From a virus (Duplodnaviria; Heunggongvirae; Uroviricota; Caudoviricetes), in IMG/VR virus record IMGVR_UViG_2513237219_000003: a DNA stretch of 20,401 nt; one strand, 5' to 3'. Below the pieces are notes generated by a model, which was not told the DNA's origin, did not search any database, and saw nothing but the letters and a program-made list of their open reading frames with translations. This document shows, piece by piece, positions 1-16,818 of the stretch. The position numbers were made by a program, and so were the translations under genes. Every line of letters begins with the position of its first letter. The stretch's first letter is position 1.

Positions 1-1284
1 TTACTTCTTCGCCTCTGCAACCACTTTACTACCCACGCCGCGGTTATTGTATTCCCACATGCGGTTGTAGTTAGTGTCATTCAGATTGCGCTGTATTTCG
101 TCGTTATCATCTACGCTGCCGGTATTACCCGCAAACGGACGATTAGAGATCACCGCATCGGCCCACGGTTTAGCCGTGTTAAAACCTTCGTTGATGGCGC
201 TATCACGGATCACCACCTGACCGTTGGTATTGGCATCAACATCCAGCGAGCGGCCCAGTTGCGCCACACCATCACCGAAAGCATTGAAACGGCTGTTTAC
301 GGCGAGGAAACCGTAGTAAATGTTGGACAGCGTAGCCGGTGCAAACACATACGCTTCTTGCTGAGTACGTGAGTTCACCACGCGGAATTCGGTGTTATCG
401 AACACCACTGCGCCGCGACCAGAAACGATATCCACATCCCCTTCAATGTAGCTGTTGGTCACCAGCGTACGCGGCTGACGATTTGTTTCCAGACGGTTCT
501 GCACACCGCTGTTGGTGACAAAGAAGGTGTTCTGACGACCGAGAATGTTAACGTTGTTAATCTGTACCTGGTCACCATCAGTACGCAGTGCCACCGCCGG
601 ATGGTTACCTGCATCTACGCTATCGCCCAGCGTGTTTTCGATGGTCAGATTTTGCAGTTGCAGGCCATTGTTTTGTGACCAGAAGACCGCAGAGCAGAGA
701 ACACCGATACTGTCGCTGCGTTTGCTCTGGCAGCTATCGTACATATACCACGCTGGTTTACCTGGCATATATTTGCCGCGCGGGTTGACGTCGTGACGCC
801 AGTCGGCAGGGCTCATGCCACCATCAAGGGAAAGCCCAATCTTCACATCAATCGGTTTTTCACCTGTACCGTACAGAGTAATTCCACCCGGAGCGGCAGG
901 GACATATACCGTTCCCTGATACTCACCAGGCATCACGGCAATATACTGGCGCTTGTTGGTACGCTTGATAATTGCCGCATCTACCGCCGCCTGAATCGTG
1001 GTATGCGTTACACCTTGAGTGCCCGCCGGGCCGACAACAAAGTCAGGTTGCGCAGGCAGGGTAATCGGGGAAGGATTCCACGCTGCAGCACCTGGTGTCA
1101 GGGATGCAAAATAGTGTTGAGCATCGAAATTCTGCGCTTCTTTTGCCGACAGAATCGGGCGAGAAGAGGTACCAGGCGCGGTTTGATCAGAAGGACGTTG
1201 ATCGGGCGGGGTTGAGCTACAGGCGGTCAGCGTCACGCCAAAAGCCAATGCCAGCGCCAGACGGGAAACTGAAAATGTGTTCAC
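1..1284 (-). CDS. ybhC: YbhC, pectinesterase-family outer-membrane lipoprotein (acyl-CoA thioesterase); complete 427-aa gene flanking attB-lambda
   Basis: Full-length ORF whose translation matches E. coli YbhC as recalled; N-terminal lipoprotein signal with LTAC lipobox; ybhC is the known gal-side neighbour of the lambda attachment site. Confidence 0.85.
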   Translation of the reverse strand: MNTFSVSRLALALAFGVTLTACSSTPPDQRPSDQTAPGTSSRPILSAKEAQNFDAQHYFASLTPGAAAWNPSPITLPAQPDFVVGPAGTQGVTHTTIQAAVDAAIIKRTNKRQYIAVMPGEYQGTVYVPAAPGGITLYGTGEKPIDVKIGLSLDGGMSPADWRHDVNPRGKYMPGKPAWYMYDSCQSKRSDSIGVLCSAVFWSQNNGLQLQNLTIENTLGDSVDAGNHPAVALRTDGDQVQINNVNILGRQNTFFVTNSGVQNRLETNRQPRTLVTNSYIEGDVDIVSGRGAVVFDNTEFRVVNSRTQQEAYVFAPATLSNIYYGFLAVNSRFNAFGDGVAQLGRSLDVDANTNGQVVIRDSAINEGFNTAKPWADAVISNRPFAGNTGSVDDNDEIQRNLNDTNYNRMWEYNNRGVGSKVVAEAKK

Positions 1285-1330
1285 AGGTTGCTCCGGGCTA
1301 TGAAATAGAAAAATGAATCCGTTGAAGCCT

Positions 1331-1420
1331 GCTTTTTTATACTAAGTTGGCATTATAAAAAAGCATTGCTTATCAATTTGTTGCAACGAACAGGTCACTA
1401 TCAGTCAAAATAAAATCATT
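1331..1420. other. Prophage attL: 15-bp lambda att core (1331..1345) followed by the P' arm with Int arm-type sites and IHF site
   Basis: Exact core GCTTTTTTATACTAA; downstream GTTGGCATTATAAAAAAGCATTGCTTATCAATTTGTTGCAACGAACAGGTCACTATCAGTCAAAATAAAATCATTATTTG matches the lambda P' arm as recalled; host sequence to the left, int to the right. Confidence 0.85.
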
Positions 1421-2489
1421 ATTTGATTTCAATTTTGTCCCACTCCCTGCCTCTGTCATCACGATACTGTGATGCCATGGTGTCCGACTTATGCCCGAGA
1501 AGATGTTGAGCAAATTTATCGCTTATCTGCTTCTCATAGAGTCTTGCAGACAAACTGCGCAACTCGTGAAAGGTTGGCGGATCCCCTTCGAAGGAGAGAC
1601 CTGATGCTTTTCGTGCGCGCATAAAATACCTTGATACTGTGCCGGATGAAAGCGGTTCACGACGAGTAGATGCAATTATGGTTTCTCCGCCAAGAATCTT
1701 TTTGCATTTATCAAGTGTTTCCTTCATTGATATCCCGAGAGCATCAACATGCAATGTTGTTGGGATGGCAATTTTTACGCCTGTTTTGCTTTGCTCGACA
1801 TAAAGATATCCATCTACGATATCAGACCACTTCATTTCGCATAAATCACCAACTCGCTGCCCGGTAACAACAGCCAGTTCCATTGCAAGTCTAAGCCAAC
1901 ATGGTGATGATTCTGCTGCTTGATAAATTTTCAGGTATTCGTCAGCCGTAAGTCTTGATCTCCTTACCTCTGATTTTGCAGCGCGAGTGGCTGCGACCGG
2001 GTTTGTTGTTATATGGCCTTCAGCCATAGCCTCTCGGAATGCATCGCTCAGTGTTGATCTGATTAACTTGGCTGATGCCGCCTTTCCCTCGTCTATGTAT
2101 CCATTGAGCATTGCCGCAATTTCTTTTGTGGTGATGTCTTCAAGTGGAGCATCAGGCAGACCCCTCCTTATTGCTTTAATTTTGCTCATGTAATTTATGA
2201 GTGTCTTCTGCTTGATTCCTCTGCTGGCCAGGATTTTTTCGTAGCGATCAAGCCATGAATGTAACGTAACGGAATTATCACTGTTGATTCTCGCTGTCAG
2301 AGGCTTGTGTTTGTGTCCTGAAAATAACTCAATGTTGGCCTGTATAGCTTCAGTGATTGCGATTCGCCTGTCTCGGCCTAATCCAAACTCTTTACCCGTC
2401 CTTGGGTCCCTGTAGCAGTAATATCCATTGTTTCTTATATAAAGGTTAGGGGGTAAATCCCGGCGCTCATGACTTCGCCTTCTTCCCAT
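1419..2489 (-). CDS. int: Lambda-type integrase (tyrosine recombinase), 356 aa
   Basis: Translation matches lambda Int along its full length and has the same size; sits next to the P' arm and overlaps xis as in lambda. Confidence 0.95.
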   Translation of the reverse strand: MGRRRSHERRDLPPNLYIRNNGYYCYRDPRTGKEFGLGRDRRIAITEAIQANIELFSGHKHKPLTARINSDNSVTLHSWLDRYEKILASRGIKQKTLINYMSKIKAIRRGLPDAPLEDITTKEIAAMLNGYIDEGKAASAKLIRSTLSDAFREAMAEGHITTNPVAATRAAKSEVRRSRLTADEYLKIYQAAESSPCWLRLAMELAVVTGQRVGDLCEMKWSDIVDGYLYVEQSKTGVKIAIPTTLHVDALGISMKETLDKCKKILGGETIIASTRREPLSSGTVSRYFMRARKASGLSFEGDPPTFHELRSLSARLYEKQISDKFAQHLLGHKSDTMASQYRDDRGREWDKIEIK

Positions 2490-2685
2490 TTCTGATCCTC
2501 TTCAAAAGGCTACCTGTTACTGGTCGATTTAAGTCAACCTTTACCGCTGATTCGTGGAACAGATATTCTCTTCCATCCTTAACCGGAGGAGGGAATATCC
2601 TGCATTCGCGCACCCATCGACGAACTGTTTCAAGGCTTCTTGGGCGTCGCTGGCGAGCGTTCCACTCCTGAAGTGTCAAGTACAT
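2467..2685 (-). CDS. xis: Lambda-type excisionase, 72 aa
   Basis: Translation MYLTLQEWNARQRRPRSLETVRRW... matches lambda Xis; 3' end overlaps the int start. Confidence 0.95.
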   Translation of the reverse strand: MYLTLQEWNARQRRPRSLETVRRWVRECRIFPPPVKDGREYLFHESAVKVDLNRPVTGSLLKRIRNGKKAKS

Positions 2686-2712
2686 CGCAAAGTCTCCGCA
2701 ATTACACGCAAG

Positions 2713-2732
2713 AAAAAACCGCCATCAGGCGG
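2713..2732 (-). terminator. Intrinsic-terminator-like hairpin between orf55 and xis (minus-strand sense)
   Basis: GC-rich 5-bp stem CCGCC/GGCGG with 4-nt loop, followed on the minus strand by a six-U tract; the loop contains the orf55 stop codon. Confidence 0.45.
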
Positions 2733-2892
2733 CTTGGTGTTCTTTCAGTTCTTCAATTCGAATATTGGTTATGTCTGCATGTGCTATCTGCGCCCATATC
2801 ATCCAGTGGTCATAGCAGTCATTGATGTTCTCTGCTTCGATAACTCTGTTGAATGGTTCTCCATTCCATTCACCTGTGACTCGGAAGTGCAT
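2725..2892 (-). CDS. Small hypothetical protein (55 aa) in the position of the lambda ORF between xis and ea8.5
   Basis: ATG with GGAG Shine-Dalgarno 8 nt upstream; translation MHFRVTGEWNGEPFNRVIEAENINDCYDHWMIWAQIAHADITNIRIEELKEHQAA; not in the ORF track because it is under 60 aa. Identity with the lambda ORF is from memory. Confidence 0.5.
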   Translation of the reverse strand: MHFRVTGEWNGEPFNRVIEAENINDCYDHWMIWAQIAHADITNIRIEELKEHQAA

Positions 2893-2902
2893 TTATCATC
2901 TC

Positions 2903-2930
2903 CATAAAACAAAACTCGCCGTAGCGAGTT
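2903..2930 (-). terminator. Intrinsic-terminator-like hairpin downstream of the 142-aa gene and IS1-A (minus-strand sense)
   Basis: 7-bp stem AACTCGC/GCGAGTT with 4-nt loop, followed on the minus strand by a U-rich tract (TTTGTTTTAT). Confidence 0.45.
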
Positions 2931-3031
2931 CAGATATAATTTCCACCAAAGGCAGTAGTTGCTGATGCTAAGAATTGGTGATGCTGCCAACTTACTGATT
3001 TAGTGTATGATGGTGTTTTTGAGGTGCTCCA

Positions 3032-3307
3032 GTGGCTTCTGTTTCTATCAGCTGTCCCTCCTGTTCAGCTACTGACGGGGTGGTGCGTAACGGCAAAAGC
3101 ACTGCCGGACATCAGCGCTATCTCTGCTCTCACTGCCGTAAAACATGGCAACTGCAGTTCACTTACACCGCTTCTCAACCCGGTACGCACCAGAAAATCA
3201 TTGATATGGCCATGAATGGCGTTGGATGCCGGGCAACCGCCCGCATTATGGGCGTTGGCCTCAACACGATTTTCCGCCATTTAAAAAACTCAGGCCGCAG
3301 TCGGTAA
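3032..3307 (+). CDS. insA: IS1 InsA (copy A), 91 aa
   Basis: Translation matches IS1 InsA; the A6C slippery motif TTAAAAAAC for the InsAB' -1 frameshift lies at about 3281..3289. Confidence 0.9.
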
Positions 3308-3729
3308 CCTCGCGCATACAGCCGGGCAGTGACGTCATCGTCTGCGCGGAAATGGACGAACAGTGGGGATACGTCGGGGCTAAATCGCGCCAGCGCTGGC
3401 TGTTTTACGCGTATGACAGGCTCCGGAAGACGGTTGTTGCGCACGTATTCGGTGAACGCACTATGGCGACGCTGGGGCGTCTTATGAGCCTGCTGTCACC
3501 CTTTGACGTGGTGATATGGATGACGGATGGCTGGCCGCTGTATGAATCCCGCCTGAAGGGAAAGCTGCACGTAATCAGCAAGCGATATACGCAGCGAATT
3601 GAGCGGCATAACCTGAATCTGAGGCAGCACCTGGCACGGCTGGGACGGAAGTCGCTGTCGTTCTCAAAATCGGTGGAGCTGCATGACAAAGTCATCGGGC
3701 ATTATCTGAACATAAAACACTATCAATAA
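3226..3729 (+). CDS. insB: IS1 InsB frame (copy A); expressed as an InsAB' fusion by -1 frameshifting
   Basis: Translation matches the IS1 InsB frame; overlaps insA in the -1 frame. Confidence 0.9.
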
Positions 3730-3751
3730 GTTGGGAGTCATTACCTAAGAA

Positions 3752-4180
3752 TTATTCAATATCTATTCCTGTAATATCTTTTATCTTTTTCCTTGCAAAG
3801 CCTTTTGCTAGTGATTTTGAAACACTTATTAGTGTACTAATTCCCTCATCCTTAAAGTTTGTTTTTATAGTTTGCCAGACCTCCTTTTGACGCAAGTCAG
3901 CAATAAAATCATGCCCTCTTGCTGTCAACCTCAGTGGTACTTCGATCCAACTATATCCAACACCTTCCCCTAACTCGTTGGACATTATATGACCGAACCC
4001 AGGTTTTCCATCAACCCTGACTATTAATTCGTAGTCGCATAATAATCGCATATGGAAAATAAAATTTTGGTCATATCTATTAAAGCCATTATCCTCTAGT
4101 TCACTAAGCATCGTGTCAGGGCCATGAGTTTTTTCGAATGCGATAAGTAGATCTTTTAGATATTGCTGGTCTAATTTCAT
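3752..4180 (-). CDS. Hypothetical 142-aa protein with a winged-helix-like N-terminus (DUF2513-like by motif recall); accessory gene in the ea8.5/ea22 position
   Basis: Intact ORF with GGAGG Shine-Dalgarno 6 nt upstream; motif LTARGHDFIADLRQKEVWQTIK resembles the conserved GH-F...R...VW core recalled for DUF2513 proteins; AT-rich codon usage; no lambda counterpart recognised. Confidence 0.6.
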   Translation of the reverse strand: MKLDQQYLKDLLIAFEKTHGPDTMLSELEDNGFNRYDQNFIFHMRLLCDYELIVRVDGKPGFGHIMSNELGEGVGYSWIEVPLRLTARGHDFIADLRQKEVWQTIKTNFKDEGISTLISVSKSLAKGFARKKIKDITGIDIE

Positions 4181-4208
4181 TGCCGCCTCCGTGACATGTC
4201 ACAGAGAT

Positions 4209-4547
4209 TTATATCATTAATTTTGTTTCGTGCCAGCCTTTGGTCACCCAGCATTGTGAGTCACCATTACACGGGCATGAATTAACAGGAACTCTCTCGC
4301 CGCACTTACCGCAACGTTTTCTGCTGATCGATTTTATACGCCAGCGCACACGTGCATCATCCTGGCGGCTCAGTAACGCGATGTACTCACCAAACTCGTA
4401 AGGCGCATGCCTGAAGCGGCGCGTGGCTCAGTTACGATCCAGCATTTCAATTTCCTGAGCATCAAGTACAAGCTCCAGCTTACGCATACCGGATGATGCT
4501 TGCTTGGCTCTCTGATCGACTTTGCGCTCTGCTGATGATTTAGCCAT
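4209..4547 (-). pseudogene. 112-codon zinc-finger-like ORF interrupted by a single in-frame TGA at codon 40 (4428..4430); possibly Ea8.5-like
   Basis: Manual translation MAKSSAERKVDQRAKQASSGMRKLELVLDAQEIEMLDRN-stop-ATRRFRHAPYEFGEYIALLSRQDDARVRWRIKSISRKRCGKCGERVPVNSCPCNGDSQCWVTKGWHETKLMI; CxxC...CxC motif; ends 28 nt upstream of the 142-aa gene start. Confidence 0.4.
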
Positions 4548-4743
4548 TCTGCTTTTCCTGCATTAGGAGAAAGACAATCATGGCGGCGCGGATACTTCCG
4601 GTATCTTTTTACTCGATATTACCCTTCAATGGCACATACAAGAAGAGAGCCATCAACAGGAGTGAGTGAGGAATCGACAACCAGCAACGCTTAATTATCT
4701 ATAGTGTCGTATTTGCTTCATAAAATATGGCGAATAACACAAA

Positions 4744-4775
4744 GCCCGCAGCAGCTCATTGTGCGGGCTTTTCTT
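4744..4775. terminator. Terminator-like hairpin (GCCCGCA / TGCGGGC stem) with flanking T and A tracts; strand ambiguous
   Basis: Perfect 7-bp GC-rich stem with 11-nt loop followed by TTTTCTT on the plus strand and preceded by AAA; lies between the truncated gene at 4841..5298 and the zinc-finger-like ORF. Confidence 0.45.
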
Positions 4776-4840
4776 ATACATACTTCCTAGAGATAATTCT
4801 ATGGAGGCATTAAATTAATACTGTCATTGGTAATATCATA

Positions 4841-5298
4841 TTATCTAAAAGTCTTTCCACTTTTAACGTCTAGGTATATTCTGTTCGACAACGTCATTCC
4901 TCCGCAATATGTGAAATAGATGTTTTTCCCCTTATTGCTTGATGCCATCCACCCTCCGATTTCCTTAAAGTCGCTTTCCGTGCAGACCCCTTCGTTTATT
5001 AACTTCCTAGCTGCCGAAGAAAACTCTTTTTTGTATATACGGTAGTCATCAGATCCTTTGATTAAAGTATCATCTCCGCTCGCATTTTCAGCAGGATCTG
5101 ATGGCCTTTCACTGCTAAGATCACTAAGTTTAACCCATTCTGAAAACTTGCCATTGACGATTCCGTTTTTTCTTGTGCAGGATTTATTACCTTCTTTAAT
5201 ATATTCGCTTTCCCCTCCCACACATGAGGCTGAATATGGCTCAGTTATACGAACCCATTCACCTTTTTTTTCTAGAAAATCTACGCCTTCCCTGAAAA
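4841..5298 (-). pseudogene. C-terminal fragment of an unknown protein; N-terminus removed at the IS1-B boundary
   Basis: Reading frame stays open from 5221 up to the IS1-B end at 5298 (…FREGVDFLEKKGEWVRITEPYSASCVGGESEY…) with no start codon before the IS; lysine-rich and AT-rich; no recognised family. Confidence 0.5.
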
Positions 5299-5313
5299 GG
5301 TAATGACTCTAAC

Positions 5314-5817
5314 TTATTGATAGTGTTTTATGTTCAGATAATGCCCGATGACTTTGTCATGCAGCTCCACCGATTTTGAGAACGACAGCGACTTCCGTCC
5401 CAGCCGTGCCAGGTGCTGCCTCAGATTCAGGTTATGCCGCTCAATTCGCTGCGTATATCGCTTGCTGATTACGTGCAGCTTTCCCTTCAGGCGGGATTCA
5501 TACAGCGGCCAGCCATCCGTCATCCATATCACCACGTCAAAGGGTGACAGCAGGCTCATAAGACGCCCCAGCGTCGCCATAGTGCGTTCACCGAATACGT
5601 GCGCAACAACCGTCTTCCGGAGCCTGTCATACGCGTAAAACAGCCAGCGCTGGCGCGATTTAGCCCCGACATAGCCCCACTGTTCGTCCATTTCCGCGCA
5701 GACGATGACGTCACTGCCCGGCTGTATGCGCGAGGTTACCGACTGCGGCCTGAGTTTTTTAAGTGACGTAAAATCGTGTTGAGGCCAACGCCCATAATGC
5801 GGGCTGTTGCCCGGCAT
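5314..5817 (-). CDS. insB: IS1 InsB frame (copy B)
   Basis: Translation matches IS1 InsB. Confidence 0.9.
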
Positions 5818-6011
5818 CCAACGCCATTCATGGCCATATCAATGATTTTCTGGTGCGTACCGGGTTGAGAAGCGGTGTAAGTGAACTGCAGTTGCCATGT
5901 TTTACGGCAGTGAGAGCAGAGATAGCGCTGATGTCCGGCGGTGCTTTTGCCGTTACGCACCACCCCGTCAGTAGCTGAACAGGAGGGACAGCTGATAGAA
6001 ACAGAAGCCAC
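5736..6011 (-). CDS. insA: IS1 InsA (copy B)
   Basis: Translation matches IS1 InsA. Confidence 0.9.
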
Positions 6012-6066
6012 TGGAGCACCTCAAAAACACCATCATACACTAAATCAGTAAGTTGGCAGCATCACC

Positions 6067-6283
6067 CCATCAGCGTTACCGTTTCGCGGTGCTTCTTCAG
6101 TACGCTACGGCAAATGTCATCGACGTTTTTATCCGGAAACTGCTGTCTGGCTTTTTTGATTTCAGAATTAGCCTGACGGGCAATGCTGCGAAGGGCGTTT
6201 TCCTGCTGAGGTGTCACTGAACAAGCCCCATGTCGGCAAGCATAAGCACACAGAATATGAAGCCCGCTGCCAGAAAAATGCAT
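6067..6283 (-). pseudogene. Lambda orf61-region ORF, 3'-truncated by IS1 copy B
   Basis: Frame ...VTPQQENALRSIARQANSEIKKARQQFPDKNVDDICRSVLKKHRETVTLMG runs straight into the IS1 end, with its stop supplied by IS1 sequence; lies in the orf61 position upstream of orf63. True start uncertain. Confidence 0.4.
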
Positions 6284-6293
6284 TCAGTGGTTG

Positions 6294-6485
6294 TCATACC
6301 TGGTCTCTCTCATCTGCTTCTGCTTTCGCCACCATCATTTCCAGTTTTTGTGAAAGGGATGTGGCTAACGTATGAAATTCTTCGTCTGTTTCTACTGGTA
6401 TTGGCACAAACCTGATTCCAATTTGAGCAAGGCTATGTGCCATCTCGATACTCGTTCTTAACTCAACAGGAGATGCTTTGTGCAT
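6294..6485 (-). CDS. Lambda orf63-like protein, 63 aa
   Basis: Translation and length match lambda orf63 as recalled; 28-nt overlap with orf60a as in lambda. Confidence 0.75.
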   Translation of the reverse strand: MHKASPVELRTSIEMAHSLAQIGIRFVPIPVETDEEFHTLATSLSQKLEMMVAKAEADERDQV

Positions 6486-6640
6486 ACAGCCCCTCGTTTA
6501 TTATTTATCTCCTCAGCCAGCCGCTGTGCTTTCAGTGGATTTCGGATAACAGAAAGGCCGGGAAATACCCAGCCTCGCTTTGTAACGGAGTAGACGAAAG
6601 TGATTGCGCCTACCCGGATATTATCGTGAGGATGCGTCAT
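6458..6640 (-). CDS. Lambda orf60a-like protein, 60 aa
   Basis: Translation [60 protein letters not shown] matches lambda orf60a; start overlaps the exo stop (ATGA). Confidence 0.75.
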
Positions 6641-7317
6641 CGCCATTGCTCCCCAAATACAAAACCAATTTCAGCCAGTGCCTCGTCCATTTTTTCGATG
6701 AACACCGGCACCATCTCGTCAAAACTCGCCATGTACTTTTCATCCCGCTCAACCACGACATAATGCAGTCCTTCACGCTTCATACGCGGGTCATAGTTGG
6801 CAAAGTACCAGGCATCTTTTCGTGTCACCCACATGCTGTACTGCACCTGGGCCATGTAAGCCGACTTTATGGCCTCGAAACCACCGAGCCGGAACTTCAT
6901 GAAATCCCGGGAGGTAAACGGGCATTTCAGCTCAAGGCCATTGCCGTCACTGCATAAACCATCGGGAGAGCAGGCGGTGCGCATACTTTCGTCGCGATAG
7001 ATGATCGGGGATTCAGTAACATTCACGCCGGAAGTGAATTCAAACAGGGTTCTGGCGTCGTTCTCGTACTGTTTTCCCCATGCCAGCGCCTTAGCATTAA
7101 CTTCCGGAGCCACACCGGTGCAAACCTCAGCCAGCAGGGTGTGGAAGTAGGACATTTTCATGTCAGGCCACTTCTTTCCTGAGCGGGGCTTGGCTATCAC
7201 GTTGTGAACTTCTGAAGCGGTGATGACGCCGAGCCGTAATTTGTGCCATGCATCATCCCCCTGTTCGACAGCTCTCACGTCGATCCCGGTACGCTGCAGG
7301 ATAATGTCCGGTGTCAT
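6637..7317 (-). CDS. exo: Lambda exonuclease (Red-alpha), 226 aa
   Basis: Full-length translation matches lambda Exo; start overlaps the bet 3' end as in lambda. Confidence 0.95.
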
Positions 7318-7760
7318 GCTGCCACCTTCTGCTCAGTGGCTTTCTGTTTCAGGAATCCAAGAGCTTTCACTGCTTCGGCCTGTGTCAGTTCTGACGATGC
7401 GCGAATGTCGCGGCGAAATATCTGGGAACAGAGCGGCAATAAGTCGTCATCCCATGTTTTGTCCAGGGCAATCAGCAGAGTGTTAATCTCCTGCATGGTT
7501 TCATCGTTAACCGGAGTAATGTCGCGTTCCGGCTGACGTTCTGCGGTGTATGCGGTATTTTCGACAATGCGCTCGGCTTCATCCTTGTCATAGATACCAG
7601 CAAATCCGAAGGCCAGACGGGCACACTGAATCATGGCTTTATGCCGTAACATCCGTTTGGGATGCGACTGCCACGGCCCCGTAATTTCTCTGCCTTCGCG
7701 GGTTTTGAATGGTTCGCGGCGGCATTCATCCATCCACTCGGTAACGCAGATCGGATGATT
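7314..7760 (-). pseudogene. bet: bet (Red-beta) 3' fragment; 5' part deleted, junction at about 7760/7761
   Basis: Translation matches the C-terminal part of lambda Bet (…NHPICVTEWMDECRREPFKTREGREI… to the end); upstream frame hits a stop and unrelated sequence beyond 7760. Confidence 0.9.
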
Positions 7761-7795
7761 ACCGGTTCGCTACCAGGGAAGAACGGGAAGGAAAG

Positions 7796-7882
7796 GTGAG
7801 CACGAATCTGATTTTCAAGGAGTGTCGCCAGAGTGCCGCGATGAAGCGGGTGTTGGCATTTTATCGCGGCAATTTTCAATAG
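7796..7882 (+). CDS. Hypothetical 28-aa ORF just past the bet deletion junction
   Basis: GTG start preceded by GGAAGGAAAG; translation VSTNLIFKECRQSAAMKRVLAFYRGNFQ; may correspond to a small DLP12-type ORF upstream of ybcN, but that could not be confirmed. Confidence 0.2.
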   Translation: MSTNLIFKECRQSAAMKRVLAFYRGNFQ

Positions 7883-7919
7883 ACTATGTACATAAAAATA
7901 TCATTTTTTTAATACATGT

Positions 7920-8111
7920 CTAATTATTGGACGAAATTGGTTTTTGCTTTGGTTTAGTTAGCCTAGCAATCAAGCCAGAGGCAATAATGATGATCCAAGC
8001 AATTTGATGCAATGCTACTCCAATATAAGAACCTTTATAGATAATAAAGGCATAGATCGCTAGAAACGAAATAAATATCCATAACGAAAGTTGATAAATT
8101 TTGGCGCGCAT
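7920..8111 (-). CDS. Hypothetical small membrane protein (about 63 aa, two predicted transmembrane helices, basic C-terminal tail)
   Basis: ORF with internal ATG start (MRAKIYQLSLWIFISFLAIYAFIIYKGSYIGVALHQIAWIIIIASGLIARLTKPKQKPISSNN); the longer track ORF begins at a TTG; very AT-rich; weak Shine-Dalgarno. Confidence 0.3.
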   Translation of the reverse strand: MRAKIYQLSLWIFISFLAIYAFIIYKGSYIGVALHQIAWIIIIASGLIARLTKPKQKPISSNN

Positions 8112-8367
8112 ATTTAATCCAATCAATCAGAAAGACGAGTAATCATAGAGGTACTATCACCCGGGTAACTATTGCTATTATGAACGGATAGGATAGAGGC
8201 TTCAATAACATATGCATCAAGTATGATGGAATATGTAGGTGAAAATGACTTGTGTCAAATTTGTGGAAATGAGTACCATGTTTCTCTGAAATTGATGTCG
8301 TTAATGGCTAGTGATAGTGAACTTTTTTACTTTATAATTCCTTTGGTTATAACAATAAGGTAAATTT

Positions 8368-8928
8368 ATGAAGAAGATAATATTATTAGCCATGATTATT
8401 GGTTCTTTAACAGGTTGCGCTAGTGTGCCACCATTGAATTTTTCAACACCTAACGTGGGAGTTAGCCAGAAAAAAATAGATGCTGAAATTAAGTCATTAA
8501 CGGTATCACTTGCTCGTCCAGATGAGCAGAAAGGGGATATCACTGCTGGTATGGAGGCTATAACTCCAATTTGGCGTGAATCTTTGCAGGAAGCACTCGA
8601 CCGAATGACTATTTTTCGTGATAGTTCACCAAATACGGTTAGCTTAAATGTTAAAGTGTTGGCTCTTGACGTTCCTGCTTTTGGTGTTTCAATGACAACT
8701 AAAGCAATTGCAAGGTATGAAATAATCAACCGTGCGAATGGTGATATTATATATACGCAGGATATTGAGTCTACCGGTACTGTTCCAGCCAGTTACGCAT
8801 TCTACGGTATTGTTCGAGCACGCGAATCTGTTAATCGCGCGGTGCAAAACAACATAACGCAGTTCTTGCAAGCATTAGAAAGTGTTGATCTTTCTCGTCC
8901 AATGTTTCCTGTTAGGGTAGCTAAATGA
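8368..8928 (+). CDS. Hypothetical outer-membrane lipoprotein, 186 aa (first gene of a two-lipoprotein operon)
   Basis: ATG with AAGG Shine-Dalgarno 7 nt upstream; signal peptide MKKIILLAMIIGSLTGC with lipobox LTGC and Ala at +2; AT-rich; stop overlaps the start of the next gene (ATGA). Confidence 0.75.
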   Translation: MKKIILLAMIIGSLTGCASVPPLNFSTPNVGVSQKKIDAEIKSLTVSLARPDEQKGDITAGMEAITPIWRESLQEALDRMTIFRDSSPNTVSLNVKVLALDVPAFGVSMTTKAIARYEIINRANGDIIYTQDIESTGTVPASYAFYGIVRARESVNRAVQNNITQFLQALESVDLSRPMFPVRVAK

Positions 8929-9377
8929 AGCGATTATTCGTAATTGCTCCACTCTTAGTGTTGGTTGGATGCGCACAAAATATATCGCCAAATAGTTATT
9001 CTGTTGGCTCTGTGGGCATGGTTAATCGAACTATCGCTGGTACAGTTATTAGTGCTAGGGGGGTTGATATCAGTGGGACTTCCGCGTTAGGCGGGACTGC
9101 TGGGGCTGCCGTGGGGGCAACCGCTGGTTCTGCGCTTGGTGGGGGAGTTCGTTCTAATATCGTTGGTGCCGTTGGTGGTGCAGTCATTGGTGGTATTGCC
9201 GGGGCAGCAATCGAATCTTCAGCAACAAAACAAACAGGCATGGAATATGTTGTCGAAACTGAGAATGGGAATTTAATGACCATTGTTCAAGGCAAAGATC
9301 CGTTATTTACTCAAGGAAGTAAGGTCCTTGTTTTATACGGAAACCCTTCTCGCATAATAACAGACCCGCGTCACTAA
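8925..9377 (+). CDS. SlyB/Pcp-like glycine-zipper outer-membrane lipoprotein, 150 aa
   Basis: Lipobox LVGC; central Gly/Ala zipper (GTSALGGTAGAAVGATAGSALGGGVRSNIVGAVGGAVIGGIAGAAI) and C-terminal region laid out like E. coli SlyB as recalled; translationally coupled to the upstream lipoprotein gene. Confidence 0.8.
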   Translation: MKRLFVIAPLLVLVGCAQNISPNSYSVGSVGMVNRTIAGTVISARGVDISGTSALGGTAGAAVGATAGSALGGGVRSNIVGAVGGAVIGGIAGAAIESSATKQTGMEYVVETENGNLMTIVQGKDPLFTQGSKVLVLYGNPSRIITDPRH

Positions 9378-9567
9378 CATACCTTTTGATTTTGTAAAAT
9401 CAATTCGTAATAATAAAGTCATCGGAGCTTGAACAACTCCGGTGACTTCTGCGCTAAACGGGGACGTTTATGCGCACATACAATCCAAACTCTCTTCTCC
9501 CTTCACAGATGCAGAAATGCACCTGCGATTTTTTGCATCCAGCGTCTGACCTCTGCGGAGGTGAAGC

Positions 9568-10023
9568 GTGAACCTACCACAAGATGGCATCAAACTGCAT
9601 CGCGGTAACTTCACCGCTATCGGCCAGCAGATCCAGCCTTATCTGGAGGACGGAAAATGCTTTCGCATGGTGCTTAAACCGTGGCGTGAGAAACGCAGTC
9701 TTTCCCAGAATGCACTCAGCCACATGTGGTACAGCGAAATCAGTGAATACCTCATCAGCAGGGGGAAATCGTTCGCTACCGCAGCATGGGTAAAAGATGC
9801 TCTCAAACACACATACCTCGGTTATGAAACCAAGGACCTGGTTGATGTCGTAACCGGCGAAATCACTACTATCCAGTCGTTACGCCATACCTCCGATCTT
9901 GATACCGGAGAGATGTATATCTTCCTGTGTAAGGTTGAAGCCTGGGCGGTGAATATTGGCTGCCACCTGACTATTCCGCAGAGCTGCGAGTTCCAGCAGC
10001 TCCGCGACAAACAGGAGGCGTAA
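9568..10023 (+). CDS. ybcN: YbcN-family DLP12-type prophage protein, 151 aa
   Basis: Translation matches K-12 DLP12 YbcN as recalled; GTG start with GGAGGTGA Shine-Dalgarno. Confidence 0.9.
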
Positions 10024-10193
10024 TGGCTACACCGCTTATTCGTGTCATGAACGGACACATCTACAGAGTACCAAATCGTCGTAAGCGTAAACCGGAGCTG
10101 AAGCCTTCCGAAATACCAACACTGCTCGGATATACCGCCAGCCTGGTTGATAAAAAATGGTTGCGACTGGCAGCAAGGAGGAGTCATGGCTGA
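10023..10193 (+). CDS. ninE: NinE-family protein, 56 aa
   Basis: ATG overlapping the ybcN stop (TAATG); translation [56 protein letters not shown]; not in the ORF track (under 60 aa). Confidence 0.8.
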   Translation: MATPLIRVMNGHIYRVPNRRKRKPELKPSEIPTLLGYTASLVDKKWLRLAARRSHG

Positions 10194-10476
10194 TTTGAGA
10201 AAAGCAGCGCGTGGTCGGGAATGCCAGGTAAGAATCCCTGGCGTATGTAATGGCAACCCTGAAACGTCTGTACTGGCACATATCCGGCTGACTGGATTGT
10301 GCGGCACCGGTACGAAACCGCCAGACCTGATTGCCACCATTGCATGTTCTGCCTGCCACGACGAAATCGACCGCCGCACACATTTTGTCGATGCTGCATA
10401 TGCAAAAGAATGCGCGCTGGAAGGTATGGCGAGAACACAGGTTATCTGGCTGAAAGAGGGGGTTATTAAGGCGTGA
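10186..10476 (+). CDS. ybcO: YbcO (DUF1364) putative nuclease, 96 aa
   Basis: ATG at 10186 with AGGAGG Shine-Dalgarno; translation from [26 protein letters not shown]… matches DLP12 YbcO; Cys-rich motif; the longer track ORF starts upstream inside ninE. Confidence 0.85.
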
Positions 10477-10835
10477 ATACCTACAGCATCACATTACCCT
10501 GGCCTCCGAGCAATAATCGCTATTACCGCCATAATCGCGGGCGCACACACATCAGCGCAGAAGGGCAGGCATACCGCGATAACGTCACCCGAATCATTAA
10601 AAACGCAATGCTGGATATCGGCCTGGCTATGCCAGTGAAAATCCGTATTGAGTGCCACATGCCGGATCGCCGTCGCCGTGACCTGGATAATCTGCAAAAA
10701 GCCGCTTTTGACGCACTCACCAAAGCAGGTTTCTGGCTGGATGATGCTCAGGTCGTTGATTACCGCGTTGTGAAGATGCCTGTTACCAAAGGTGGGAGGC
10801 TGGAACTGACCATCACCGAAATGGGGAATGAATGA
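10473..10835 (+). CDS. rusA: RusA Holliday-junction resolvase, 120 aa
   Basis: Translation matches DLP12 RusA nearly residue for residue; GTG start overlapping the ybcO stop. Confidence 0.95.
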
Positions 10836-10972
10836 TGTTTGAGTTTAATATGGCAGAACTTCTTCGCCACCGCTGGATGCGCCTGCGCTTATATCGTTTC
10901 CCCAGTTCTGTTTTGACCGATTACCGAATACTGAGGAATTACGCCAAAACCCTGACAGGAGCAGGAGTATGA
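10832..10972 (+). CDS. ylcG: YlcG-like small protein, 46 aa
   Basis: ATG overlapping the rusA stop; translation [46 protein letters not shown]; position downstream of rusA as in DLP12. Confidence 0.7.
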
Positions 10973-11057
10973 AGTCAGAGATAACAATCAACTAATACTG
11001 TTTTATTGATTTTTGCTTGTAATTGGCGTTCTGGTCTGATTTTTGTGGAGTAAGTTG

Positions 11058-11441
11058 ATGCGTGATATTCAGATGGTTCTTGAGCGTTGGGGAGCGTGGG
11101 CGGCTAATAATCATGAAGATGTGACCTGGTCGTCCATTGCCGCCGGTTTTAAGGGATTAATTACTTCAAAAGTAAAATCTCGCCCGCAATGTTGTGACGA
11201 TGACGCGATGATCATTTGCGGGTGCATGGCCCGTCTGAAAAAGAACAACAGCGATTTGCACGATTTATTAGTAGATTATTATGTAGTCGGTATGACATTC
11301 ATGTCACTGGCAGGTAAGCATTGCTGCTCTGATGGTTATATCGGGAAAAGGTTACAGAAGGCTGAGGGTATAATTGAAGGGATGTTAATGGCATTAGATA
11401 TCCGGTTAGAGATGGATATCGTTGTTAATAACTCTAATTAA
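11058..11441 (+). CDS. quuD: Q-family late-gene antiterminator (phage-21 / DLP12 type), 127 aa
   Basis: Translation [24 protein letters not shown]… matches DLP12 QuuD as recalled; ATG with GTGGAG Shine-Dalgarno; Cys-rich zinc-binding region. Confidence 0.9.
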
Positions 11442-11468
11442 TATGCCAATTGTTTACTAAAAATTATT

Positions 11469-11492
11469 AAAAATGGGGCGTTGAGACGCCCC
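11469..11492 (-). terminator. Intrinsic terminator for the nmpC transcript (minus-strand sense)
   Basis: 6-bp GC stem GGGGCG/CGCCCC with 6-nt loop, followed on the minus strand by ATTTTT. Confidence 0.6.
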
Positions 11493-11629
11493 CAAAAATA
11501 AAGGGTAATATATAACAGAAGGTTTATATAGTTAGAAGCAAGGTTGTGCTCCTAAAGGAAGTGGCTTGAGGGAGCCACTTATATGTTGGGGAGGCAAAGC
11601 CTCCCGCAACATATCTTTTAGTAATCAAA
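11469..11629 (-). ncRNA. ipeX: Structured 3' region of the nmpC transcript; candidate IpeX-like small RNA
   Basis: About 160 nt between the nmpC stop and the terminator, holding two further perfect hairpins (GGGAGGC/GCCTCCC and AAGTGGCT/AGCCACTT). Assignment rests on recall that the IpeX sRNA lies just 3' of nmpC in DLP12. Confidence 0.4.
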
Positions 11630-12712
11630 TTAGAACTGGTAAACCATACCTACAGCAACGATATCATCGGTAGCAACGCCAGATGCTTTCGTGAAATCGC
11701 TCTTATCAATCAGGTTGATTTTGTAATCAACAAAAGTGGACATATTTTTGTTGAAGTAATAGGTTGCACCTACATCAATATATTCAACCAGGTCCTGATC
11801 ACCCCACGCACCCAAGTCTTTTCCTTTAGATTGCAGGTAAGCAACGGACGGACGCAGACCGAAGTCGAACTGATATTGTGCAACTACTTCGAAGTTTTGT
11901 GCTTTGTTGGCAATATGGTTATTACCAAAAACAGTCATGTTCTGGGTTTCAGAATAGGTGGTAGCCAGATAGATGTTGTTCGCATCATATTTCAGACCAG
12001 CTGCCCATACTTCAGCATTTTGACCAGATGCATTCAGGCTGTTGTTACCGTAGATAACCTGATTATTAGTGCGGTCAGATTTAGCATAGGTTGCACCTAC
12101 ACCGAATCCTTCATACTCATAAGTAGTGGAGAAACCGAAACCATCACCATTAGCTTCAGTTACGTCAGTGCGGTCATTTTTACCCTGATACTGAGCAGCA
12201 AAGTTCAGACCATCAACCAGACCAAAGAAGTCATTGTTACGATAAGTTGCAACACCTGTGGTGCGACCAGTCATGAATACATCTGTTTGGGTCCAGGTAT
12301 CGCCACCGAATTCTGGCAGAACGTCGGTCCATGCACCAATATCGTATGCTACACCGTAGTTACGGCCATAATCGATGGAGCCGTAGTCACCGAATTTCAG
12401 GCCAGCGAAGGCAAGACGGGTTTTATCTTTGGAGGAACCTTGAGATTCAGCGCGGTTGCCTTTGAATTCATATTCCCACTGACCGAAACCAGTCAGTTGA
12501 TCGTTGATTTGGGTTTCACCTTTGAAGCCAAGACGGGCATAAGTAGTATCACCATCATCTGCATCATTAGAGGAGAAGTAGTGCTTAGCATTAACTTTCC
12601 CGTACAGATCCAGCTTGTTACTGTCTTTATTATAAATTTCAGCTGCCTGAGCAGACATCGCCATCAGTACTGATGCAGCTACAGCAGAAATTGCCACTGT
12701 TAATTTTTTCAT
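11630..12712 (-). CDS. nmpC: NmpC/OmpD-family general porin, apparently intact (360 aa with signal peptide)
   Basis: Translation matches the NmpC/OmpC porin family with signal peptide [23 protein letters not shown] and C-terminal …VAVGMVYQF; the track ORF starts 20 codons upstream, but the MKKL start fits the signal peptide. Confidence 0.9.
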
Positions 12713-13139
12713 CGTGAGCCCTTTTTTTGAACTATTATTAAAAAATGATGTCACTGCGCGATAAATATTCATCTAATCAATGTGATTATTTCAAGATGTA
12801 AGTTTTGGTTTCTCATTTGATTTGTGAAGTAGATCTCTATTTTTATCTGAACTTTTTCTATCGAATCCTATTCATGGCTCTTGGCTGAATAAAAATAAAT
12901 CTATTAGCCAATTTATATTAATGGCTGTTATTTATAAGTGCTCTATAATTTGAAGATTCAATTTAAACCAGCTAAAAATAACGCTGGAAATTATTTGTTG
13001 GTTATTTGTTGAGATTTGCTTATGTATTTGTAGTGGTGTTTTCAATACTCGGTAGCATTCTCGCAAATATCATTTAGTGGTTTACGTACGTAAAAAATTG
13101 GTTATGCTGTTAAGAGTGGTTACTTCGTCACACAGCTTA

Positions 13140-13170
13140 AACCCGCCGTCGAGCGGGTTTTTCCATTTTT
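13140..13170 (+). terminator. Intrinsic terminator upstream of the lysis genes; candidate tR'-like site
   Basis: 7-bp stem AACCCGC/GCGGGTT with 6-nt loop followed by a T-rich tract (TTTTCCATTTTTT), about 130 nt upstream of essD. Confidence 0.55.
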
Positions 13171-13299
13171 TGAGTCTCGATATTAGCTGATAACCCAATA
13201 CCTGAGTTATTCACTGACTCCGAGTCTGTTACGTTTCTGCTTTTTTGCGATACGTTGTATTCCCTCAATTTACACCCGCTTTGTCTGCGAGGTGGGGTT

Positions 13300-13515
13300 A
13301 TGAAATCCATGGATAAGTTAACAACGGGTGTCGCCTATGGCACCTCAGCAGGTAGTGCCGGTTACTGGTTTTTACAGCTGCTCGATAAAGTCACGCCCTC
13401 ACAGTGGGCAGCAATAGGTGTGCTGGGTAGCCTGGTATTTGGCCTGCTGACGTACCTGACAAACCTTTATTTCAAGATTAAAGAAGATAAGCGCAAGGCT
13501 GCGAGAGGTGAATAA
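13300..13515 (+). CDS. essD: S21-type class II holin (pinholin) with dual-start motif, 71 aa
   Basis: Translation [71 protein letters not shown] matches phage-21 S / DLP12 EssD; Met1 and Met4 fit antiholin/holin dual starts; strong Shine-Dalgarno. Confidence 0.9.
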
Positions 13516-14012
13516 TGCCTCCATCATTACGAAAAGCCGTTGCTGCTGCTATTGGTGGCGGAGCAATTGCTATAGCATCAGTGTTAATTACTGGCCCAAG
13601 TGGTAACGATGGTCTGGAAGGTGTCAGCTACGTACCATACAAAGATATCGTTGGCGTATGGACTGTATGTCACGGACACACCGGAAAAGACATCATGCTC
13701 GGTAAAACGTATACCAAAGCAGAATGCAAAGCACTCTTGAATAAAGACCTTGCCACTGTCGCCAGACAAATTAACCCGTACATCAAAGTCGATATACCGG
13801 AAACAACGCGCGGCGCTCTTTACTCATTCGTTTACAACGTGGGTGCTGGCAATTTCAGAACATCGACGCTTCTTCGCAAAATAAACCAGGGCGATATCAA
13901 AGGCGCATGTGATCAGCTACGTCGCTGGACATATGCTGGCGGTAAGCAATGGAAAGGTCTCATGACTCGTCGTGAGATTGAGCGTGAAATCTGTTTGTGG
14001 GGTCAGCAATGA
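13515..14012 (+). CDS. rrrD: SAR endolysin (lysozyme, R21 type), 165 aa
   Basis: Translation matches DLP12 RrrD; N-terminal Gly/Ala-rich signal-arrest-release segment; start overlaps the essD stop (TAATG). Confidence 0.95.
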
Positions 14013-14470
14013 ACAGAGTAACCGCGATTATCTCCGCTCTGGTTATCTGCATCATCGTCTACCTGTCATGGGCTGTTAATCATTACCGTGATAACGCCAT
14101 TACCTACAAAGCCCAGCGCGACAAAAATGCCAGAGAACTGAAGCTGGCGAACGCGGCAATTACTGACATGCAGATGCGTCAGCGTGATGTTGCTGCGCTC
14201 GATGCAAAATACACGAAGGAGTTAGCTGATGCGAAAGCTGAAAATGATGCTCTGCGTGATGATGTTGCCGCTGGTCGTCGTCGGTTGCACATCAAAGCAG
14301 TCTGTCAGTCAGTGCGTGAAGCCACCACCGCCTCCGGCGTGGATAATGCAGCCTCCCCCCGACTGGCAGACACCGCTGAACGGGATTATTTCACCCTCAG
14401 AGAGAGGCTGATCACTATGCAAAAACAACTGGAAGGAACCCAGAAGTATATTAATGAGCAGTGCAGATAG
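14009..14470 (+). CDS. rzpD: Rz-type inner-membrane spanin, 153 aa
   Basis: Translation from [29 protein letters not shown]… matches DLP12 RzpD; N-terminal transmembrane helix; ATGA overlap with rrrD. Confidence 0.9.
14229..14411 (+). CDS. rzoD: Rz1-type outer-membrane lipoprotein spanin, nested in the +1 frame of rzpD, 60 aa
   Basis: Translation [24 protein letters not shown]…PPPPP… with lipobox VVGC and proline-rich region; wholly embedded in rzpD. Confidence 0.85.
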
Positions 14471-14501
14471 AGTTGCCCATATCGATGGGCAACTCATGCA
14501 A

Positions 14502-14795
14502 TTATTGTGAGCAATACACACGCGCTTCCAGCGGAGTATAAATGCCTAAAGTAATAAAACCGAGCAATCCATTTACGAATGTTTGCTGGGTTTCTGTTTT
14601 AACAACATTTTCTGCGCCGCCACAAATTTTGGCTGCATCGACAGTTTTCTTCTGCCCAATTCCAGAAACGAAGAAATGATGGGTGATGGTTTCCTTTGGT
14701 GCTACTGCTGCCGGTTTGTTTTGAACAGTAAACGTCTGTTGAGCACATCCTGTAATAAGCAGGGCCAGCGCAGTAGCGAGTAGCATTTTTTTCAT
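14502..14795 (-). CDS. borD: Bor-family lipoprotein (serum-resistance-associated), 97 aa
   Basis: Translation matches lambda Bor / DLP12 BorD; lipobox ITGC. Confidence 0.9.
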   Translation of the reverse strand: MKKMLLATALALLITGCAQQTFTVQNKPAAVAPKETITHHFFVSGIGQKKTVDAAKICGGAENVVKTETQQTFVNGLLGFITLGIYTPLEARVYCSQ

Positions 14796-15085
14796 GGTGT
14801 TATTCCCGATGCTTTTTGAAGTTCGCAGAATCGTATGTGTAGAAAATTAAACAAACCCTAAACAATGAGTTGAAATTTCATATTGTTAATATTTATTAAT
14901 GTATGTCAGGTGCGATGAATCGTCATTGTATTCCCGGATTAACTATGTCCACAGCCCTGACGGGGAACTTCTCTGCGGGAGTGTCCGGGAATAATTAAAA
15001 ACGATGCACACAGGGTTTAGCGCGTACACGTATTGCATTATGCCAACGCCCCGGTGCTGACACGGAAGAAACCGGACGTTATGAT

Positions 15086-15538
15086 TTAGCGTGGAAAGAT
15101 TTGTGTAGTGTTCTGAATGCTCTCAGTAAATAGTAATGAATTATCAAAGGTATAGTAATATCTTTTATGTTCATGGATATTTGTAACCCATCGGAAAACT
15201 CCTGCTTTAGCAAGATTTTCCCTGTATTGCTGAAATGTGATTTCTCTTGATTTCAACCTATCATAGGACGTTTCTATAAGATGCGTGTTTCTTGAGAATT
15301 TAACATTTACAACCTTTTTAAGTCCTTTTATTAACACGGTGTTATCGTTTTCTAACACGATGTGAATATTATCTGTGGCTAGATAGTAAATATAATGTGA
15401 GACGTTGTGACGTTTTAGTTCAGAATAAAACAATTCACAGTTTAAATCTTTTCGCACTTGATCGAATATTTCTTTAAAAATGGCAACCTGAGCCATTGGT
15501 AAAACCTTCCATGTGATACGAGGGCGCGTAGTTTGCAT
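15086..15538 (-). CDS. ybcV: YbcV-family (DUF1398) protein; start uncertain
   Basis: Translation …[38 protein letters not shown]… matches DLP12 YbcV as recalled; the track ORF runs to 15619; candidate starts at 15538 or 15496. Confidence 0.8.
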
Positions 15539-15781
15539 TATCGTTTTTATCGTTTCAATCTGGTCTGACCTCTTTGTGTTTTGTTGATGATTTATGTCAA
15601 ATATTAGGAATGTTTTCACTTAATAGTATTGGTTGCGTAACAAAGTGCGGTCCTGCTGGCATTCTGGAGGGAAATACAACCGACAGATGTATGTAAGGCC
15701 AACGTGCTCAAATCTTCATACAGAAAGATTTGAAGTAATATTTTAACCGCTAGATGAAGAGCAAGCGCATGGAGCGACAAA

Positions 15782-15988: not shown

Positions 15989-16152
15989 TCACCATAACTG
16001 CTAATCATTCAAACTATTTAGCCTGTGACAGAGCCAACACGCAGTCTGTCACTGTCAGGAAAGTGGTAAAACTGCAACTCAATTACTGCAATGCCCTCGT
16101 AATTAAGTGAATTTACAATATCGTCCTGTTCGGAGGGAAGAACGCGGGATGT

Positions 16153-16795: not shown

Positions 16796-16818
16796 CCAGG
16801 TAACACAGTGTTATGACA

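Follow-up and report, generated by a model that had tools for sequence, protein, structure and literature searches.

Two inverted IS1 elements around a short stretch of phage DNA may be the arms of a composite transposon that brought in what lies between them, or two separate insertions into a resident locus. This question is raised by the xis-exo region of a Caudoviricetes record (IMGVR_UViG_2513237219_000003), whose full 20,401 nucleotides are referred to here as the window and in which IS1 copies A and B are separated by 1,553 bp (3746..5298). A sequence-only reading of the window had left the choice between a composite transposon and two independent hits; the second proved right, given the IS-free relatives, the target-site duplications (TSDs) and the lack of a second location. 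We consider, with a probability of about 90%, that positions 2977 to 6066 are native DNA of a defective lambdoid prophage of an E. coli strain, located at attB-lambda beside ybhC, and that three successive IS1 events struck this DNA in situ.

Structure and types of the two IS1 copies

A repeat finder returned inverted arms at 2977-3732 and 5311-6066 (756 nt, 99% complementary), confirming the inverted orientation of the two copies, and the ends assigned to both copies and to the intervening segment by the sequence-only reading proved exact on reading of the ends (Table 1). Both copies have about the length of IS1 (768 bp; PMC12428005) and its ∼23-bp imperfect terminal inverted repeats (GGTGATGCTGCCAACTTACTGAT / GGTAATGACTCCAACTTATTGAT), both contain the 91-aa InsA and 167-aa InsB frames and the TTAAAAAAC motif (A6C, −1 frameshift), and both match the IS1 family transposase model NF033558 (NCBIfam) at 144 to 146 bits, against a cutoff of 100.

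The copies were described at first as nonidentical in InsA (F/L), in the N-terminal region of InsB and in the right inverted repeat (IRR). This is confirmed by nine differences (eight substitutions and one indel), which include the InsA F/L exchange, InsB residues 5 and 17 to 19, two silent pairs and the IRR. The left inverted repeats (IRLs) of both copies equal the consensus without change. The IRR reads GTTGGGAGTC in copy A, with one additional G at 3733, and GTTAGAGTC in copy B, the canonical form being GTTGGAGTC. RefSeq names copy A as IS1B family and copy B as IS1A family in NCTC9040, and nine mismatches have been reported between the IS1A and IS1B types (PMC12428005). Naming and type difference together support the view that A and B are independent IS1 variants.

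Table 1. Features in and around the two IS1 copies (window positions)
Feature	Position	Strand	Details
Left copy of 8-bp TAAGAATT duplication from IS1 A	2969..2976		
IS1 copy A (IS1B-type)	2977..3745	+	769 bp; NF033558; IRL from 2977
IS1 copy A, insA	3032..3307		
IS1 copy A, insB frame	3226..3729		
IS1 copy A, A6C frameshift motif	3283..3289		
Right copy of 8-bp TAAGAATT duplication from IS1 A	3746..3753		
DUF2513 gene, 142 aa	3752..4180	−	Pfam PF10711, 6.8e-11; phrog_585; native prophage accessory gene
Pseudogene of 112-aa Cys-rich protein	4209..4547	−	phrog_536 "transcriptional regulator"
UmuD-like ("DNA repair protein") remnant	4622..4687	−	RefSeq annotation of identical stretch, L001 5877..5942
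G+C-rich hairpin, then T-runs on both strands	4741..4771		Folding energy −17.5 and −18 kcal/mol
3' 152 codons of 204-aa secreted-protein gene	4841..5298	−	phrog_8310
Deletion junction	5298..5299		NCTC9040 L004 5899..6995 (1,097 bp) missing, from IRR tip of IS1 B
IS1 copy B (IS1A-type)	5299..6066	−	768 bp; NF033558; IRR from 5299, with G>A variant; IRL end 6066
IS1 copy B, insB frame	5314..5817		
IS1 copy B, insA	5736..6011		
ZapA-like/orf61-position gene, 5' part	6062..6283	−	phrog_303; interrupted by IS1 B
Surviving copy of 9-bp CCATCAGCG duplication from IS1 B	6067..6075		Other copy gone with deletion

Origin and gene content of the intervening segment

Escherichia coli MS 124-1 carries the same defective lambdoid prophage at ybhC with no IS1. 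Its sequence is 100% identical to window positions 1..2976, 3745..5298 and 6066..9500, and the segment runs unbroken into both flanks. Contiguity in IS-free relatives was what the sequence-only reading had named as the mark of two insertions into a native phage locus, and it was found: the segment is joined to orf55 on the xis side and to the ea22/TraR/orf61-like/exo side in MS 124-1, in phage Chlobot, in PK8568 and in 16 plasmids. In Chlobot, PK8568 and the plasmids it lies within longer collinear prophage DNA, the ends of which differ from the segment ends. The segment between the IS1 copies is on this comparison native phage DNA and not mobile cargo, which makes the label "cargo" a misnomer.

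Assignment of the locus to the xis-exo accessory slot is supported by an ea22-like remnant found there in relatives. In lambda the same place, between xis and exo, is that of ea8.5/ea22/orf61/orf63/orf60a, and in the relatives the ea22-like remnant is followed by DUF1382 and DUF1317 genes (the positions of lambda orf63 and orf60a) beside exo. Unlike in lambda, the gene content comes from another lambdoid mosaic, common to phage Chlobot, with which orf55, DUF2513, the Cys-rich regulator, the UmuD-like remnant, the 204-aa secreted protein and TraR/DksA are shared.

The 142-aa gene, TGA-interrupted Cys-rich open reading frame (ORF), hairpin and truncated gene originally reported for the segment are all present. 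The DUF2513 gene is annotated alike in all relatives. The Cys-rich ORF has an in-frame TGA at codon 40 (4428..4430), where intact orthologues have TGC (Cys); the stop is older than the IS1 events, since IS-free MS 124-1 is annotated with the same internal stop. Where the UmuD-like remnant lies, phage Chlobot has an annotated 105-aa UmuD-like protein (phrog_10470/811). The hairpin (z = −4.0 on the plus strand and −2.25 on the minus strand, with a partial match on the plus strand in a second search) is plausibly a terminator downstream of the 204-aa gene. That gene lacks its first 52 codons, including the signal peptide, in the window, and its frame runs into a stop just within IS1 B. None of these three proteins (DUF2513, Cys-rich, 204-aa) was matched in PADLOC, NCBIfam and PDB sequence searches. 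For DUF2513, a putative winged-helix protein on the sequence-only reading, the single-sequence AlphaFold2 model (pLDDT of 45) was too poor for a fold search.

Target-site duplications and the adjacent deletion

Copy A has direct TAAGAATT on both sides in the window, NCTC9040 and 1332KP, and TAAGAATT is single copy in IS-free MS 124-1 (L005 3570-3577). NCTC9040 and 1332KP share this insertion at an unchanged position, and their copy measures 768 bp and is annotated as IS1B family. By these signs copy A is a simple insertion that made an 8-bp duplication of its own. Likewise, CCATCAGCG is single copy in MS 124-1 (L005 6211-6219) and stands on both sides of copy B in NCTC9040, where copy B is a simple insertion in the ZapA-like gene with a 9-bp duplication. 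The two insertions have therefore left duplications of the 8 to 9 bp expected of IS1, but in the window copy B is without an intact pair because a 1,097-bp deletion begins at its inner end.

The duplication at copy A, at 8 bp, contrasts with the usual 9 bp for IS1 and was counted against the main explanation; 8-bp duplications are also known for IS1.

The window shows no substitution relative to NCTC9040 over 20.4 kb (1..5298 and 5299..20401), and its copy B is identical to that of NCTC9040 at 768 of 768 positions, including the rare G>A variant of the IRR. The two sequences differ only by the 1,097-bp gap at the IRR of copy B and by two 1-bp insertions in the window, both in short homopolymers (3733 and 20222). 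In NCTC9040 a longer piece of native DNA, 2.65 kb, separates the two IS1 copies. Missing from the window are the left CCATCAGCG copy, the 3' fragment of the ZapA-like gene, the TraR/DksA gene, the ea22-like remnant and the 52 first codons of the 204-aa gene; it is this deletion that truncated the gene earlier listed as unknown. In 1332KP an independent IS1 insertion (TSD ATCTACGCC) is found 11 bp away from the deletion endpoint, and the surroundings are AT-rich (35 to 41% GC), all of which fits IS1 target choice.

These features are, as far as sequence can tell, those of a classic IS-adjacent deletion, of which IS1 in the gal region is the classical case. The IS remains intact at its original site, together with its right junction, the deletion starts from the exact IS terminus, the duplication is lost on one side and unchanged on the other, and NCTC9040 represents the TSD-flanked progenitor. 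Nothing of substance departs from the textbook event; the only peculiarity is that a second, inverted IS1 was brought close, creating a composite look-alike. That IS activity can cost an element its TSDs, by adjacent deletion or by IS × IS recombination, is established (PMC11708052). The deletion junction had no match in 5,426 complete E. coli genomes (171-bp query), in plasmids, or in GTDB representatives and JGI metagenomes (both scanned for exact matches).

Order of events and alternative explanations

We propose that an IS1B-type element, copy A, entered a site between orf55 and the DUF2513 gene, duplicating TAAGAATT. An IS1A-type element, copy B, then entered the 3' part of the ZapA-like gene, ∼2.6 kb to the right of copy A and inverted relative to it, duplicating CCATCAGCG, and this state is the one kept in NCTC9040. 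In a third step the inner (IRR) end of copy B would have mediated the loss of the adjacent 1,097 bp, on one side only, leaving copy B 1,553 bp from copy A. Comparison of the genomes shows both insertions and the exact extent of the deletion, for which the most likely enzymatic route is intramolecular transposition, with an AT-rich stretch nearby serving as the IS1 target.

Composite transposons with inverted IS1 arms are known (Tn1681), and carriage of the 1.55-kb segment into the xis-exo region as such a unit would account for two intact inverted IS1 copies with identical IRL outer ends and a short segment between them. This origin nevertheless deserves almost no credence and is refuted already by the IS-free MS 124-1 locus: IS-free relatives have the segment, 100% identical, joined to its two flanks, copy A carries its own TSD, the outer flanks (CTAAGAATT and CCATCAGCG) form no duplication around the unit, and in NCTC9040 extra native DNA separates the copies. 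Neither inner junction occurs at a second location in 5,426 E. coli genomes or on any of 72,556 plasmids, that of copy A being confined to two genomes and to the same locus in both; the movement of IS1-segment-IS1 to another context, proposed earlier as a check of mobility, was not seen in the genomes and plasmids searched. The arrangement resembles Tn1681 in its inversion with IRL ends outside, and both Tn1681 and Tn9 (an IS1 composite with direct arms) in having two complete IS1 copies around a short segment. Unlike in either, the unit as a whole is not bounded by a TSD, one arm has a TSD of its own, the segment is native and not foreign, the unit is found in a single genomic context, and the arms are two IS1 variants gained separately.

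A more serious competitor, though an unlikely one, concerns only the deletion. A third IS1, in the orientation of copy B, might have inserted in the 204-aa gene at about L005 5114-5122, after which homologous recombination between the direct copies would have taken out the interval and one IS1. The expected product is the same as that of a single step (an intact IS1, no TSD and junctions from different copies), the 204-aa gene is a proven IS1 target in which the 1332KP insertion, 11 bp away, is of IS1A type and in the same orientation, and IS × IS recombination is a common cause of absent TSDs (PMC11708052). However, no genome was found with IS1 at that exact position, and one event more is needed than for direct intramolecular transposition. 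It is very improbable that the deletion and the 1.55-kb spacing are an assembly artefact and that the source strain has the NCTC9040 arrangement. Apart from the gap, the window has no substitution relative to NCTC9040, its two homopolymer 1-bp insertions (3733 and 20222) are typical of long-read assembly error, and the junction is in no other public assembly searched; yet for a collapse both ends of the lost piece should be repeats, and here IS1 stands at one end and unique sequence at the other, and the break coincides exactly with the IS1 terminus, the position expected of a biological event.

The IS1 of 1332KP was also considered as a recombination partner and rejected on base-level comparison: it lies 11 bp off, has its own TSD and is without the IRR G>A variant. 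It is excluded because the IRR of a recombinant would come from the left-hand copy, yet the IRR in the window is the NCTC9040 variant.

Implications

Three successive IS1 events in native prophage DNA make an ordinary finding, because the segment is native and what befell it was two separate insertions and a deletion; events of this kind are already known. IS1 has struck the same region in relatives: 1332KP has an insertion inside the 204-aa secreted-protein gene, and in ATCC 8739 and KCTC 2571 an IS1 stands 58 bp upstream of the gene, of which KCTC 2571 has a shortened allele. The gene, which has lost its N-terminal part in the window, is carried by about 130 genomes. We regard it as an improbable idea that IS1 repeatedly targets the xis-exo region of the ybhC prophage lineage and converges on the 204-aa gene, with selection to switch off a costly prophage gene, and not mere AT-rich preference, as the possible cause. 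In a weaker variant, the IS1-A/B unit could be a nascent, still immobile composite transposon able to mobilise DUF2513; both copies look intact and have two good IRL outer ends, and the 3.09-kb unit may yet become mobile. The additional G in the IRR of copy A sits at an inner end and should have no bearing on this.

The locus provides a base-pair-resolved case of two unrelated IS1 insertions and an adjacent deletion that mimic a composite transposon. Its importance beyond the locus is small, but genome scans can draw a lesson from it: before a segment is called cargo, one should check the duplications of each IS, see whether the whole unit is bounded by one, and consult a relative that lacks the IS. 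At this locus, IS elements erode a defective prophage.

Organization of the prophage

In the window, ybhC is followed by a lambda-type int and xis, the pair of IS1 elements, DUF1382, DUF1317, exo, and a shortened bet gene in fusion with a ren fragment; downstream of this fusion come DLP12-like genes of the nin/Q/lysis set, then genes for a porin and tail fibres. The whole represents a defective lambdoid prophage located at attB-lambda: at 7314..7882, bet (RecT family) ends after 139 to 149 codons and abuts the ren fragment on the other strand, and the gam-kil-cIII-N-immunity-O-P block is therefore absent entirely. IS-free MS 124-1 has the same fusion, while ATCC 8739 and KCTC 2571 retain bet-gam-kil-cIII, ending in IS1SD. 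An OmpC/NmpC-type porin gene (11630..12712, minus strand) lies between the Q antiterminator and lysis genes, an arrangement also found in DLP12. Within a tail-fibre gene, a 132-nt unit (44 codons) occurs three times in tandem (18231..18626; 100, 77, and 62% identity) and looks like an in-frame repeat domain.

The repeat finder reported a single long inverted pair (2977-3732 and 5311-6066; 756 nt, 99% complementary), and the element ends were read out from its arms. The consensus left inverted repeat, GGTGATGCTGCCAACTTACTGAT, is on the outer side of both copies, each of which has an InsA frame of 91 aa, an InsB frame of 167 aa, and an A6C frameshift motif, and both exceed the curated cutoff of NF033558 (IS1 family transposase). 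They differ by eight substitutions and one indel, among them InsA F/L, four residues in the N-terminal part of InsB, and changes in the right inverted repeat (IRR): an additional G in copy A and G>A in copy B. RefSeq names the two arms IS1B family and IS1A family, types for which nine mismatches are reported (PMC12428005). The repeat finder and end reading thus confirmed that an IS1 pair brackets the segment, as the sequence-only reading had observed, and together with the copy comparison upheld its coordinates and list of differences.

Features of the IS1-flanked region and IS1 copies in relatives (L001, L006, and L007 are loci of further IS1-bearing relatives)
Feature	Location	Strand	Details
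IS1 copy A	2977..3745	+	769 bp
IS1 copy B	5299..6066	-	768 bp
Segment between copies	3746..5298		1,553 bp
DUF2513 gene	within 3746..5298		Pfam 6.8e-11; phrog_585
Pseudogene of Cys-rich 112-aa protein	within 3746..5298		phrog_536; codon 40 TGA, not TGC
UmuD-like remnant	within 3746..5298		
G+C-rich hairpin	4741..4771		
3' 152 codons of 204-aa gene	within 3746..5298		phrog_8310; product with N-terminal signal peptide
IS1 in relative	L001 6768..7535		
IS1 in relative	L006 5338..6105		
IS1 in relative	L007 5388..6155		

In the Cys-rich open reading frame, the TGA at 4428..4430 replaces a Cys codon, TGC. This stop is common to all ybhC-integrated copies examined (MS 124-1, ATCC 8739, NCTC9040, and 1332KP), and the frame is uninterrupted in PK8568 and on plasmids.

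Two independent insertions into a native prophage region

The arrangement had been proposed to be either a composite transposon or two independent hits, with contiguous cargo in IS-free relatives as the deciding observation. The full segment was found in 131 of 5,426 complete E. coli genomes, phage Chlobot, and 16 plasmids. At ybhC, E. coli MS 124-1 (coordinates L005) has the same prophage, which is 100% identical to window positions 1..2976, 3745..5298, and 6066..9500 and contains no IS1; its order is int, xis, orf55, DUF2513, the Cys-rich pseudogene (same internal stop), UmuD remnant, 204-aa gene, ea22-like remnant, TraR/DksA, ZapA-like gene, DUF1382, DUF1317, exo. The supposed cargo thus belongs to this locus natively and is continuous with both flanks, which refutes the composite transposon and leaves two independent hits. 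Elsewhere, the segment lies inside longer collinear stretches in Chlobot (L005 1932-7910), the PK8568 prophage at torS/torT (3310-6260), and plasmids pA18-1 (3385-6762) and pABWA45_1 (1935-6762), and no stretch end in these four matches the cargo ends (L005 3570 and 5122). The mobile elements flanking it on plasmids are IS26, IS5, and Tn5403, not IS1.

The arms themselves also argue against a composite element, being different IS1 variants, one with its own duplication. No duplication surrounds the whole unit (outer flanks CTAAGAATT versus CCATCAGCG), and junction searches of E. coli genomes and plasmids did not find the unit at another location; flank comparison, relatives, and these searches gave no evidence of past movement as a unit. 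With a left inverted repeat at either outer end and an intact transposase gene in each copy, the unit appears structurally competent, and future mobility is conceivable.

Large plasmids carry a 3.4- to 4.8-kb fragment derived from this arm of the prophage (at its largest, int-xis-orf55-DUF2513 ... DUF1317), adjoining ars genes and bounded by IS26, IS5, and Tn5403, in Escherichia, Klebsiella, Enterobacter, and Citrobacter hosts (pA18-1, Citrobacter freundii, IncA; pABWA45_1, E. coli, IncF; 14 further plasmids). The right-hand end at L005 6762, common to the two fragments examined, suggests a single capture event with later spread.

An IS1-adjacent deletion

Copy A is a simple insertion, as it has its own direct duplication TAAGAATT (2969..2976 and 3746..3753), single-copy in MS 124-1; a junction search returned exactly two other genomes with this insertion, NCTC9040 and 1332KP. 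Copy B has no duplication in the window (flanks ...CCTGAAAA versus CCATCAGCG...). In NCTC9040 (coordinates L004), an identical copy B (768/768, IRR G>A included) has the same right junction, in the ZapA-like gene, and direct CCATCAGCG on both sides. The window shows zero substitutions relative to NCTC9040 across all 20.4 kb and only three differences, the largest being 1,097 bp (L004 5899..6995) missing from the window, starting exactly at the copy B IRR tip. The missing piece comprises the left CCATCAGCG, the ZapA-like gene 3' fragment, TraR/DksA, and the ea22-like remnant; it also takes in the 204-aa gene's first 52 codons and the region upstream of them. An IS intact in place, one junction unchanged, a deletion running precisely from the other terminus, and a lost duplication constitute the signature of IS-adjacent deletion, a well-documented result of IS activity (PMC11708052). 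This deletion explains the truncated gene, which the sequence-only reading had recognized without the deletion behind it, and the short spacing between the copies. The other differences are 1-bp insertions in short homopolymers, at 3733 (GG to GGG, copy A IRR) and 20222 (A to AA, which would frameshift a tail-fibre assembly gene); both may stem from sequencing error in one assembly.

An assembly artefact is an unlikely source of the 1,097-bp gap: the deletion junction was found in no other public assembly searched, but the missing piece has repetitive sequence at just one of its ends. Copy B may have transposed intramolecularly to a site within the 204-aa gene, deleting the DNA between in one step. 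Alternatively, a further IS1 would have entered that gene in the same orientation and recombined homologously with copy B. Both routes yield the same product and are inseparable by sequence; we favor the one-step route, giving it roughly 0.6 of the total probability. The stretch around the deletion endpoint is AT rich (35 to 41% GC) and also received an IS1 in 1332KP; such attraction of IS1 fits a transposase-chosen endpoint. That 1332KP copy (IS1A type, same orientation, in the 204-aa gene) looked at first like a suitable recombination partner and was ruled out: its junction lies 11 bp further left, a 9-bp duplication of its own, ATCTACGCC, flanks it, and at the IRR position where window and NCTC9040 share a variant, it shows the canonical base. 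By these features it is an independent event.

Recurrent IS1 events in a decaying prophage

Among close relatives in this prophage lineage, at least four independent IS1 events fall within the ~2.7-kb xis-exo region: at site A, at the ZapA-like site, inside the 204-aa gene in 1332KP, and, in both ATCC 8739 and KCTC 2571, as a 95%-identical variant 58 bp upstream of that gene. This variant lacks a duplication and is accompanied by the loss of 10 bp (L005 5337..5346). Three of the events reach or directly border the 204-aa secreted-protein gene, which in KCTC 2571 is shortened by a 1-bp indel. A preference for AT-rich targets is the simplest explanation for the repeated hits. Two IS1 insertions and an adjacent deletion are a textbook kind of event, already known, in a decaying prophage.
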